Virus record (IMG/VR): IMGVR_UViG_2861064056_000003
Source: a virus
Lineage: Duplodnaviria > Heunggongvirae > Uroviricota > Caudoviricetes
Length of the DNA: 42,396 nt
Reading direction: 5' to 3' (one strand)
Shown: positions 31,047-37,973 of the stretch, piece by piece
Layout: every line of letters begins with the position of its first letter
Numbering within the stretch: position 1 is the first letter of the stretch
Translations under genes and position numbers: made by a program
Notes under the pieces: generated by a model
Told to the model about the DNA's origin: nothing
Seen by the model: only the letters and a program-made list of their open reading frames with translations
Databases searched by the model: none

Positions 31047-31077
31047 CACCACCAGCGACGCCAATCATCTGGTGGTG
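31047..31077 (-). promoter_or_regulatory. RNA hairpin abutting the ant start codon
   Basis: Perfect 9-bp inverted repeat CACCACCAG-N13-CTGGTGGTG; on the mRNA the 3' arm ends directly at the AUG and covers the SD-like GGUGGUG. Confidence 0.4.
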
Positions 31078-31177
31078 AGCTGTGCAGGGTTGGCGTAACC
31101 GGCTAAGTGAACCCGGCGCTTCCACAGAAGCCCCCACACAGCCCACCATAATGCGAATGTGGCCGTGCCTAACACAT

Positions 31178-31197
31178 AAAAAAACCGCTAACGCGGC
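31178..31197 (-). terminator. Weak terminator between the nin genes and ant
   Basis: Minus strand CCGCGTTAGCGG hairpin followed by TTTTTTT. Confidence 0.3.
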
Positions 31198-31288
31198 TAT
31201 GCGTCACTTAGATATCCGGGACGCCAATCCCGGCAACCGATTTTGCGGCTGCGCGGAAACTATAGCCCCGGACTTTTTCTAAGTCAAT

Positions 31289-32875: not shown

Positions 32876-32896
32876 TGGTCTTTCCTCGGTTATTTC

Positions 32897-32910
32897 ACGC
32901 TGGTCAGGCG
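32897..32910 (-). repeat. Intercistronic motif CGCCTGACCAGCG, copy A
   Basis: Directly after the helicase stop and before CCGAGGAAAGACCA-ATG; near-identical copies at 35321..35333 and 37326..37338. Confidence 0.6.
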
Positions 32911-35869: not shown

Positions 35870-36100
35870 TTAAGCTGCTTCCGTTTTAGGCAAGCTGTCA
35901 TCTGGGTTTGGGTAAAGATCCGGTCTAAGATCATGAGGGGTCACGCGCCATTCAAGAGCTTCAGATGTGCGCAAAACCTCTTCACCGGGAACCCGTCCTT
36001 TGAACCAGAGGCTTACCGTTTGTGGTTTTTTCCCTAATCGCCGCCCTAACTCGGATTGACTCATTACGGAAAGAATTTTGTCTTGCAGTTGTTTATCCAT
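35870..36100 (-). CDS. Cro/YdaS-like HTH regulator
   Basis: Start taken at MDKQ with RBS AAGGAG; SQSELGRRLGKKPQTVSLW HTH; divergent from the repressor gene. Confidence 0.65.
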   Translation of the reverse strand: MDKQLQDKILSVMSQSELGRRLGKKPQTVSLWFKGRVPGEEVLRTSEALEWRVTPHDLRPDLYPNPDDSLPKTEAA

Positions 36101-36198
36101 ATGGACTCCTTGTGTCCGCGTCATCATTACAAACAATAACTGTAATTACAAATTATATTTGCAATGCTCCCTACAATTAAACCTTGTATCCTTACGGT
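36101..36198. promoter_or_regulatory. Divergent promoter/operator region (OR-like)
   Basis: 98-bp AT-rich gap with TTACAAA at 36127 and 36146, inverted TTTGCAA at 36158, and dyad TTACA-N9-TGTAA at 36127..36145. Confidence 0.5.
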
Positions 36199-36612
36199 AT
36201 GAACACAAAAACGAAAAACATGGCTTTTGCTAGCCGACTACAACGGATTCTAAAAGACTTAGGCTGGTCTCAATCTGAGTTAGCTCGCCATATTGGGGTT
36301 ACGGCTCAATCAGTTCAGGCATGGTGTAATGGGGTAACTCCAAGAAAAGATAAATTAGACAAGCTAGCAAAAGTGACCGGATACCCTGTTCATTTTTTCT
36401 TCATGAATGAAGGGGAATATTTGGATGAATCCACACTACACCCGGGTAATTACAATCAAGAACTAACCCCGCAAGAACAGGCTCTACTGCAACTATTCAG
36501 AGGACTGCCTGAGAGCGAAAAAAATAAATTAATCAATGAGCTAAAAGAAAAAAGAGAGCACTTCGATCTACTGCTAAAAGAACTACTTGAAGCCAAAAAC
36601 CAGACAAAATAG
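36199..36612 (+). CDS. DicA-like HTH repressor without a peptidase domain
   Basis: XRE-type HTH (QSELARHIGVTAQSVQAW) plus C-terminal LTPQEQALLQLFRGLPESEKNKLINELKEKREHFDLLLKELLEAKNQTK resembling the recalled E. coli DicA C-terminus; no SD before the ATG. Confidence 0.7.
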   Translation: MNTKTKNMAFASRLQRILKDLGWSQSELARHIGVTAQSVQAWCNGVTPRKDKLDKLAKVTGYPVHFFFMNEGEYLDESTLHPGNYNQELTPQEQALLQLFRGLPESEKNKLINELKEKREHFDLLLKELLEAKNQTK

Positions 36613-36730
36613 TTCAGTTCAAATTTCCAGGCCAGCCGCTGCTGGCATGCAACTTTCCCCTAACACAAAAACACCTTTACACAGTGAATATTTTTTTGCC
36701 CCTCACTACAAATTATTTTTTAAAAACACA

Positions 36731-36759
36731 TTGACCATTACAAATACAAATTGTAAAGT
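36731..36759 (+). promoter_or_regulatory. Putative PL-like promoter with operator dyad
   Basis: TTGACC, 17-bp spacer, TAAAGT; the spacer holds dyad TTACAAAT-ACA-AATTGTAA sharing the OR half-site. Confidence 0.35.
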
Positions 36760-37095
36760 CACTTTCATCAACAACGCTTACCCAGCGGCAGTTGTTCAGA
36801 AACACGTTCTGACAGCCGGAAAGACGGCACCAAATTTTGCGCGTCGGCGCCAACACGGTGACAGAGGGAAAGACTTCACCGGCATATGGCACATGTGTCG
36901 AAGCGGTCTGGATGGAAGCGGAGCCTTAACGCGTTGTCTCCATAGCAGGTAGCCGGAATGTGCAAGCCACAGCCAGGTATGAGCGATTGATTCACCATCA
37001 AGGCGATACGGTGTGACCACCAGGGAAGAGTCCTGGCTACAACACGAGAGCGCACTTCATCGACTCAACTTTGAGCTTTGTCGTTAAATTTTGAA

Positions 37096-37181
37096 ATGGC
37101 GGAGTGCGCTCCCGGTTGTGGTGAACAGGTGTTTAACGGGAACTCCCTGCCCGTTACCCGGTTCGATTCCGGGCGCCCATC
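37096..37181 (+). other. tRNA-like element with canonical T-arm, not a confident tRNA
   Basis: CCCGG-TTCGATT-CCGGG T-arm and a preceding AACGGG..CCCGTT stem-loop, but the acceptor stem fails in two of seven pairs and there is no CCA. Confidence 0.15.
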
Positions 37182-37325
37182 ATCAATTTGCTGTGTTTAG
37201 TCTTTGCCCAGTCCGCACGATGGGCCATTTTTTCACACAGCCAGGTTTTATCGCTGTGCCTGAGTCCCCAACAGGAGAGGCCAAACCCGCAGCGTGACAC
37301 CAGGGAAAGACCGGAGGAAGTACCA

Positions 37326-37338
37326 CGCCTGACCAGCG
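37326..37338 (+). repeat. Intercistronic motif CGCCTGACCAGCG, copy C
   Basis: Same 13-mer as 32897..32910 and 35321..35333 in the plus orientation; GCCTGACCAGC recurs at 37349 and 37384. Confidence 0.55.
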
Positions 37339-37622
37339 TTGACCATGAGCCTGACCAGCTCAAAACAGGAAAGACCAGCCCGGGCCTGACCAGCCCTGTA
37401 CGGTCGTAATGGAAACATAACGACGCCGGAAACGTAACCGGCACCCTTTAGATAGCAAAAGACCCGCACAAGGCGGGCCAGTTACCCCGAACGGCGACCA
37501 AACCATTCGGATTTATCACAAGTGACCAAACTTGTGATGAGGAAAGACCAACGACACTGACGCTATGGAAGCTGATCAATATTCGCTGATCGGCTCTGAG
37601 TATACATTACCAAGGAGTCGCT

Positions 37623-37943
37623 ATGGAAGCGCGCACCATCCCAGTAACACTCTTTATTCATTATGCAACTTCAACTTTCAGCCACGAAAAGCTGCTTGTT
37701 GCGACTGTTGATATGTCAAAAAATTTTCCAGACAGGTACATCCTTCTGGAAAGCCGCGAAATTGAAATTACCGTTAACCAGCCCGAGCCAATCGACATCA
37801 TCGGTTTACAGGTCGAGCAACTGCGTGAACAAAAACAGAAAACAGTCGCCGACGCCCAACAGCGTATTGCTGCTATCGATGACAAAATCCAGCAGTTACT
37901 TTGCATCGAATACACGCCAGATACCGATGAGCTCCCCTACTAA
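37623..37943 (+). CDS. Hypothetical early protein
   Basis: 106 aa; strong RBS AAGGAG; first clear gene of the plus-strand operon. Confidence 0.45.
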   Translation: MEARTIPVTLFIHYATSTFSHEKLLVATVDMSKNFPDRYILLESREIEITVNQPEPIDIIGLQVEQLREQKQKTVADAQQRIAAIDDKIQQLLCIEYTPDTDELPY

Positions 37944-37973
37944 AAACCACTGACCTGTAATGAGGAAAGACCA

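Follow-up and report, generated by a model that had tools for sequence, protein, structure and literature searches.

What does a phage keep in the long interval between its repressor gene and the first gene of an early operon, if the interval itself holds no gene? The question is raised by a Caudoviricetes DNA of 42,396 nucleotides (nt), IMG/VR record IMGVR_UViG_2861064056_000003, here called the window, in which positions 36613–37622 contain only short open reading frames (ORFs) that overlap each other on both strands. This interval is the untranslated leader of an early-left operon with a promoter of the repressor-controlled type, and the leader consists of RNA modules arrayed along the plus strand. 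The modules are, in order, 5' hairpins, a 162-nt core RNA, a long interrupted helix, a double hairpin, an RprA-like small RNA and a spacer, followed by a gene at 37623. The core RNA belongs to an uncatalogued family and is the main subject of this study.

A preliminary description of the window had taken the interval to be non-coding, with short overlapping ORFs only, and the ORF listing and the database searches agree. None of the four longest ORFs that lie largely inside the interval matches Pfam or PHROG, and no coding sequence is annotated there among the RefSeq records listed. Further, the leader is 72% identical to that of the relative BUCT709, with gaps of 1, 2, 4 and 7 nt; as these lengths are not multiples of three, they argue against coding. 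The suggestion that a structured RNA or a small RNA could be encoded here also holds, both for the core at 36879–37040 and for the RprA-like RNA at 37185–37233. The list of features in the preliminary description was correct, but these two, the most informative ones, had been overlooked. The covariation analysis that it proposed, run on 37 copies from related phages, reveals helices that covary.

The core RNA and its distribution

Covariance model R1, built for the core RNA, has a single hit in the window, 36879–37040 on the plus strand (132.7 bits, E = 2e-39). The predicted structure consists of five helices and a pseudoknot. P1 (36880–36885/36895–36900) is a local hairpin, P2 (36907–36910/36946–36949) carries a variable arm, and P3 is variable. 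P4 (36987–36991/36997–37001) has the loop CACC (36993–36996), which pairs with GGUG (37010–37013) to form the pseudoknot, and P5 (37020–37024/37032–37036) has the loop GAAGAGU. There is possibly a second pseudoknot, formed between a loop and a junction by GCACAU (36889–36894) and AUGUGC (36958–36963); this pairing is invariant, so covariation speaks neither for nor against it.

About 155 further copies of the core were collected from enterobacterial phages and prophages (single loci are numbered from L001 upward), and alignment A3 of 37 diverse copies is the basis of the covariation counts for the core. In P1, P2, P4, P5 and the two pseudoknots 93.7% of the cells are paired, compared with 27–51% when the partners are slid, and both sides have changed in 14 of the 31 pairs (87 cells). 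Not one of 500 shuffled controls reaches the values of the core. While the helices vary by compensation, the junctions between them, AGCGGUC, GGUAGCCGGAAUGUGCAAG and GGCG, are invariant in the 37 copies. Five sequences retain the P4-loop pseudoknot in the form AACC/GGUU, and phage KsaM-C1 has it as UGGUC/GACCA. The predicted elements P1, P2, P4, the pseudoknot and P5 are all supported by this covariation. RNAalifold proposes a nested alternative, in which the 5' end of the core is paired with GGUAGCCGGAAUGUGC; the local hairpin P1 is preferred, since columns 6/18 and 4/20 covary.

It is clear that the plus strand is the RNA strand, because 128 of the 1146 core cells are G-U pairs that would be mismatches on the opposite strand, and because nearby tRNA genes are on the same strand as the core in all 63 loci that have them. 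These observations bear on the idea that the conserved block acts as DNA, i.e., as a recombination hot spot, a replication origin or a packaging site. The core does mark mosaic boundaries between shuffled flanking modules, and it is duplicated in one locus, L033. However, compensatory changes preserve the helices, the G-U cells are strand-specific and the core keeps one orientation with respect to tRNAs and promoters; the probability of a role at the DNA level appears close to negligible. In L033 the two cores are in tandem on the minus strand (3996–4153 and 4803–4958), around an inserted membrane-protein gene on the opposite strand. The second copy contains helix-breaking mutations and is a decaying duplicate.

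A sensitive DNA search finds positions 36880–37051 conserved, mostly without annotation, in many phages. These include the epsilon15-like phages SPN1S, phiV10, Tyrion and PAT1, the phages P1, P7 and D6, the lambdoid phage mEp390 and several Klebsiella phages. An exact 19-mer of the core, GGTAGCCGGAATGTGCAAG, is present in at least 120 viral contigs and also in 24 bacterial genomes, all from Enterobacteriaceae except two doubtful metagenome bins. Among complete E. coli genomes, 744 of 5426 contain the core (256 of the places are on plasmids), and it is annotated in none of them. Epsilon15 itself has retained no more than ~45 nt from the start of the core (L005, 2001–2045); the remainder has been deleted together with the tRNA-Arg.

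The phage records that were checked, including those of P1, P7 and D6, have no feature annotated at the core. Covariance-model scans with Rfam 15 give no match over 36879–37040 at E up to 10, nor to the homologues in SPN1S, P1, SopranoGao, KsaM-C1 and mEp390 at E up to 1. The searchable literature, with subscription-only papers outside the search, contains no description of the core, also when searched by sequence string. A covarying structured RNA, carried by P1, a model phage, and by ~14% of complete E. coli genomes, thus has no explanation in Rfam or in the literature that could be searched.

Modules around the core

The core is followed by P6/M1 (37038–37120, plus strand), a long interrupted helix. 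Its strands, ACAAC..GAGAGCGCACUUC (37038–37059) and GGAGUGCGCUC..GUUGU (37101–37120), enclose a variable insert. The fold in the window has z = -3.6, and in alignment A4, made from nine homologous modules, six of the 18 pairs have changed on both sides. A P6-type helix, enclosing 35–377 nt after P5, is found in 96 of the 110 loci with the CAAC junction. Judging from this structure, it is plausible that P6/M1 is a substrate of RNase III; the homologous module in epsilon15 was annotated as an RNase III site by the depositors, which is likewise a prediction. The 3' strand of P6 was also considered as a hidden boxA, and this was rejected as the degenerate boxA-like motif is equally frequent in antisense (77 versus 72 sites).

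The second informative module is a small RNA at 37185–37233 on the plus strand that resembles the 3' half of RprA, as seen from the Rfam match and a terminator scan. It contains the seed GCUGUGUUUAGUCUUUG (37190–37206), a terminator stem (37206–37210/37221–37225) and a U tract (37228–37233). The Rfam RprA model (RF00034) scores 37.4 bits (E = 0.015), which is under its gathering score of 70, and model positions ~60–108 align almost identically to 37185–37235. The threshold of the full-length RprA family is thus not reached, while the 3' seed and the Rho-independent terminator are both present. A small RNA with the RprA seed is located downstream of the core in 28 loci, where the seed GCUGUGUGUAGUCUU is invariant and is followed by assorted terminator-like hairpins. 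A constant seed with differing terminators is the hallmark of Hfq small RNAs that act through their seed. RprAproc, the last 47 nt of RprA, is a functional processed species in vivo (PMC9262595). From its sequence, the phage RNA can be described as a mimic of the seed and terminator of this processed 3' form. No description of an RprA mimic from a phage or prophage was found in the searchable literature, subscription-only papers again being outside the search. The recurrence of such RNAs points to a deliberate rewiring of the RprA pathways, with their biofilm, envelope-stress and nitrate-response targets. Just upstream, GCCCAUC (37175–37181) can pair with GAUGGGC (37219–37225) over 7 bp, compared with the 5 bp of the terminator stem, and this alternative fold could tune termination or access to the seed.

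Between the long helix and the small RNA lies the double hairpin that the preliminary description had noticed, and both parts of it are real. A hairpin AACGGG-loop-CCCGUU (37134–37156, plus strand) abuts an exact T-arm, CCCGG-UUCGAUU-CCGGG (37157–37173, plus strand), whose sequence occurs once in the window versus 0 times expected by chance. Together the two hairpins resemble the top half of a tRNA. However, the T-arm cannot be read as part of a tRNA. It is the only tRNA arm present, the anticodon arm being absent; ARAGORN finds no tRNA or transfer-messenger RNA (tmRNA) in the window, and in Rfam no tRNA match reaches the gathering score, the best being tRNA-Sec with 19.3 bits versus a cutoff of 47. 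A tRNA or tmRNA gene at this place is thereby ruled out. In a tile search the double-hairpin module was found in only two near-identical loci, i.e., it is lineage-specific, and in other phages unrelated T-arm-like hairpins are located inside P6.

The clustered repeats seen earlier are also there, with three copies of GCCTGACCAGC and five of GGAAAGAC in the interval. GCCTGACCAGC is found on the plus strand at 37327, 37349 and 37384 and on the minus strand at 32899 and 35322 (5 in the window versus 0.03 expected). GGAAAGAC occurs 11 times in the window versus 1.4 expected, and within the interval at 36818, 36867, 37304, 37368 and 37541, the last three of these being GGAAAGACC. Some copies form the loop of P5-like hairpins, such as GCCG-GAAAGA-CGGC at 36815–36828 on the plus strand, where the loop is GGAAAGAC.

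These repeats had been described as a possible protein-binding array. They are instead part of a gene-junction motif, in which GAGGAAAGACC followed after 0–1 nt by ATG forms the ribosome-binding site (RBS) junction of four genes, at 32886 and 35306 on the minus strand and at 37963 and 41138 on the plus strand. The four genes are spread over both early operons, and two of them have CGCCTGACCAGCG 13–16 nt upstream. The motif has the form stop/Shine-Dalgarno/start, and the copies that flank genes are in the sense orientation of their own operon. The copies in the leader have no ORFs; at 37535–37554 on the plus strand (copy at 37541) a junction is preserved in which ACG replaces ATG. The repeats are conserved in BUCT709. 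GAGGAAAGACC is a start-associated sequence specific to this phage group, and we read the leader repeats as fossil or spare gene junctions.

It might still be argued that the T-arm hairpins are a tRNA-like decoy and the GCCTGACCAGC/GGAAAGACC copies a protein-binding array, and that these form the functional heart of the leader. The exactness of the T-arm, the T-arm-like hairpins at other positions in relatives and a repeat number far above chance, kept in BUCT709, fit this idea. It is nevertheless very unlikely, as the T-arm module is limited to two near-identical loci, as the repeats serve as RBS or junctions of real genes in both operons, always in sense, and as the GGA content of the leader is only ~1.8 standard deviations (sd) over the window mean. 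A CsrA sponge made from GGA-rich loops is unconvincing for the same number (20 GGA in 863 nt versus a window mean of 11, sd 5).

The remaining modules are less distinct. The hairpins at the 5' end of the leader (36769–36878, plus strand) have a weak fold score (z = -1.5) and are kept only in the closest relatives. The spacer between the terminator and the first gene (37234–37622, plus strand) contains the three copies of GCCTGACCAGC, the GGAAAGACC copies and several hairpins, including AUCACAAGU...ACUUGUGAU at 37523–37546 on the plus strand.

Promoter, cargo and proposed role of the core

The PL-like promoter predicted in the preliminary description is found at 36731–36759 on the plus strand, as a consensus match of the sigma-70 type (TTGACC-17-TAAAGT). 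Its spacer contains the operator-like palindrome TTACAAATACAAATTGTAA (TTACAA-N7-TTGTAA, 36738–36756). Two palindromes of the same type are located at 36128–36146 and 36147–36165, between a Cro-like gene (35870–36136, minus strand) and the divergent cI-like helix-turn-helix gene (36184–36612, plus strand), the latter recognised by Pfam and PHROG searches. The promoter is therefore plausibly a repressor-controlled equivalent of PL, and we infer a transcription start near 36766. Just past the stop codon of the cI-like gene there is a hairpin, GCCAGC-CGCT-GCTGGC (36631–36646, plus strand), with a weak T run after it, so read-through of the repressor transcript may be possible.

The operon begins with a gene of 106 amino acids (37623–37943, plus strand) that matches phrog_2479 and has the RBS AAGGAG (37613–37625 together with the start codon, plus strand). 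It is followed by a 738-amino-acid exonuclease-family gene, Gp157, a DUF4224 gene and the integrase. No N-like protein had been evident at first reading, and the search confirms this: the first gene has no arginine-rich N-terminus, and a heuristic scan within 3 kb downstream of the core in 114 loci gave no convincing N-like arginine-rich ORF, its four hits being judged spurious.

Many loci have promoter-like sites of the sigma-70 type 3–120 nt upstream of the core. In L043, L140, L143, L010 and L014, five separate loci, only a few bases separate the -10 element from P1, which indicates that the core RNA starts the transcript there. This start is relevant to whether the core is a self-cleaving ribozyme or another processing element that separates the modules of the transcript. 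A compact, pseudoknotted RNA with invariant junction nucleotides, beside tRNAs and within multi-module transcripts, could be one, and the HDV-like theta ribozymes beside phage tRNAs are a precedent. However, where the core begins at the inferred start no upstream cleavage is needed, six diverse copies match no Rfam ribozyme at permissive thresholds, and in our own comparison the fold is unlike the nested double pseudoknot of HDV-like ribozymes. We consider a ribozyme unlikely.

The core is always 5' of further cargo, and the cargo differs between phages. In mEp390, BUCT709 and the window the core is directly 3' of the repressor gene. In phage P1 it is located between trnI and ban, within the C1-controlled ban operon, which also holds a dicF-like region and three tRNAs, and ban is its downstream cargo. 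The epsilon15-like phages have it as the first element of a cassette that lies between terL and portal on the opposite strand; this cassette has a promoter and a terminator of its own and points away from the structural genes. A tRNA-Arg(UCU) is found 164–230 nt downstream in 35 loci. In L076, finally, a small ORF starts 30 nt downstream and the core is its 5' untranslated region (UTR).

Immediately 3' of P5 the sequence varies, with at least four junction types, and no terminator was detected nearer than ~115 nt past P5 in any locus. Of the 58 loci with a downstream terminator, 45 have a same-strand ORF that starts at most 250 nt after it, and the identity of this ORF varies widely. The distance from the U tract to the start of the ORF is often ~15 nt, too short to accommodate a promoter. 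A ligand-sensing riboswitch over the early-left operon would share with the core the conserved junctions, the variable peripheral stems, the position in a 5' leader and the terminator downstream. However, no expression platform is attached, the next terminator is 115 to >700 nt away with unrelated modules between, the cargo includes tRNAs and small RNAs, and there is no Rfam riboswitch match; this explanation is extremely unlikely.

Several other elements were observed in this region. In L010, L014, L031 and L106, ~150–350 nt past the core, a recurrent helix GUUGUGGUG/CACCACAAC encloses two hairpins with the complementary loops GCUGAU and AUCAGC, which could possibly form kissing loops. In epsilon15-like loci (e.g., L011, L130, L146 and L160) there is a strong terminator, CCCGGTTCGCCGGG or CCCACTTCGGTGGG with a T run, and very different cargo ORFs follow ~15 nt later, as if it were a fixed docking point. 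L095 has an exact rrn-type boxA, TGCTCTTTAACAA (3345–3375), 35 nt past the core and beside the terminator of an inserted gene on the opposite strand. It is the only true boxA in 157 loci, and it indicates that leaders of this kind recruit anti-termination signals.

We suggest, with a probability of roughly 0.4, that the core RNA is a cis-acting read-through element of the early-left transcript, comparable to put of phage HK022. When the repressor is removed, RNA polymerase would start near 36766 and transcribe the array. The transcript would then be cut by host RNases. RNase III is the probable enzyme at the long helix, and RNase E or RNase P in the vicinity of the tRNA-like hairpins; the products would be a structured RNA that is stable and a small RNA of the Hfq type, the latter acting on RprA targets. 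Before the polymerase arrives at the exonuclease gene, the excisionase-like gene and the integrase gene, it would have to pass the intrinsic terminator of the small RNA and ~850 nt of untranslated RNA without an N-like protein. Here the core would act in cis and modify or protect the elongation complex, as the HK022 put RNA or EAR do, while being unrelated to both. HK022 put stays active when it is untethered from the transcript (PMC9378689), so processing is compatible with a put-like role. It could even be speculated, with considerable doubt, that the core defines a new class of protein-independent processive antiterminators, a functional analogue of put with unrelated sequence and fold, across P1-like, epsilon15-like and lambdoid phages of Enterobacteriaceae. 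In such a class, and with the same doubt, the polymerase would be carried through untranslated tRNA or small-RNA cargo and intrinsic terminators to the genes downstream.

Several observations speak against read-through by the core. R1 finds no second copy in a rightward operon in the window, while HK022 has both putL and putR. The terminator of the window is weak, with a 5-bp stem and a 10-nt loop, and the promoter and terminator calls are consensus matches only. In P1 the core is ~2.4 kb from Pban, and the ban operon as a whole is not needed for lytic growth (PMC10695390). In epsilon15, which lacks most of the core, the terminator and gene p50 are still kept. L095 has a boxA as well, so the core may not be the antiterminator there. 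Finally, a tRNA begins at the end of P6 in many loci, and release by RNase P would suit a product that acts in trans equally well.

Such a product is the close rival. The core, with or without P6, could be a stable non-coding RNA (ncRNA) freed by RNase P, RNase III or RNase E, with a host or phage factor as its target, for instance in translation, RNA decay or defence; the downstream genes would be expressed by partial read-through or from their own promoters. This is possible, if somewhat unlikely. In the loci examined the tRNA-Arg begins right after the 3' strand of P6, so that RNase P would give a defined 3' end, and in P1-like phages a tRNA ends ~30 nt upstream of the core. The epsilon15-like unit is a stand-alone cassette, and the invariant single-stranded junctions with the pseudoknot resemble a binding or catalytic core. 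Lambda carries rexAB, expressed in the lysogen, just after its repressor gene, the place that the core takes in the window. However, no locus has the core alone with its own terminator, the sequence 3' of P5 is variable, the core of L076 is simply the 5' UTR of an ORF, and no constant protein partner is encoded nearby. If the core acts in trans, it would be a new phage ncRNA with a host target. If instead it acts in cis on transcription, as we prefer, it would be only the second put-type class of phage RNA and would explain early-left expression in temperate phages without N.

The array is part of an E. coli prophage. A prophage with 100% identity to the window over the queried stretch of 1.2 kb is present in 474 complete E. 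coli genomes, ST131-type strains among them, and adjoins glyW-cysT-leuZ. Its integrase abuts the 3' end of leuZ in this operon (L001, 10881–12329). The 3' external spacer of leuZ is a known small-RNA sponge, which may be changed by integration at leuZ. L002 (OM816835) and OM816834, deposited as Stenotrophomonas phages BUCT708/709, are syntenic with the prophage in the part that holds immunity genes, leader and integrase; this host label looks doubtful. The same prophage also has an ImmI RNA immunity module of the P1/P7 type at 31068–31265 on the minus strand, with Rfam matches at gathering score to isrK (80.4 bits), C4 antisense RNA (75.2) and the a1/b1 targets (52.9).

Relation to known systems

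The closest functional parallel to the core is HK022 put. Each lies at the 5' end, or close to it, of an early transcript under repressor control, the phage having no N-like protein; each is upstream of terminators to be passed and is confined to enterobacterial phages. However, put has ~70 nt and two stem-loops, while the core has 162 nt, five helices and a pseudoknot. There is one put per early operon (putL and putR) but one core per phage, and the core, unlike put, occurs as well in cassettes that stand alone and far within the P1 ban operon. Homology was looked for in the putL and putR sequences, and R1 yields nothing above noise in the HK022 region, its 7.1-bit match lying away from the put sites. 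The core thus lacks every testable feature of membership in put, although it may work like put or EAR.

A lambda-type N/nut system is not recognisable, as a search for boxA motifs from -700 to +1500 around the core is negative in the window and phrog_2479 is not N-like at its N-terminus. The array is similar to rrn leaders in being an untranslated transcript of several RNAs with long flanking helices and embedded tRNAs, and in the exact boxA of L095; however, the window has no boxA, and the degenerate boxA-like motif is no commoner in sense than in antisense. GOLLD and ROOL are, like the core, phage-borne and ornate multi-helix RNAs beside tRNAs. They differ from it in that their Rfam models give no match, the core is much smaller, the hosts are different and its 3' parts are modular and variable.

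The small RNA shares with RprA a near-identical seed, UUGCUGUGU(G/U)UAGUCUUUGCCC, and an RprA-like terminator. It is without the 5' two-thirds, including nt 30–70, which in RprA pair with the translation-initiation region of narP (PMC9262595). It comes from a phage early transcript, whereas RprA is made from the Rcs-controlled rprA promoter, and it belongs to a phage family with a constant seed and variable terminators.

The junction motif GAGGAAAGACC has a counterpart in position only. Cluster K mycobacteriophages contain start-associated sequences, a conserved motif immediately 5' of several start codons, but sequence and host are unrelated. Unlike these, the GAGGAAAGACC junction includes the stop codon of the upstream gene, sometimes has a GCCTGACCAGC partner and has copies without ORFs in the leader.

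Finally, the leader of the P1 ban operon and the C4 RNA of P1 and P7, both processed by RNases of the host, are, like the array of the window, non-coding cargo in phage operons. C4 RNA is matured by RNase P, and the window shares the C4/isrK module with the P1/P7 type. The array illustrates how phages package non-coding cargo as modules that can be shuffled.

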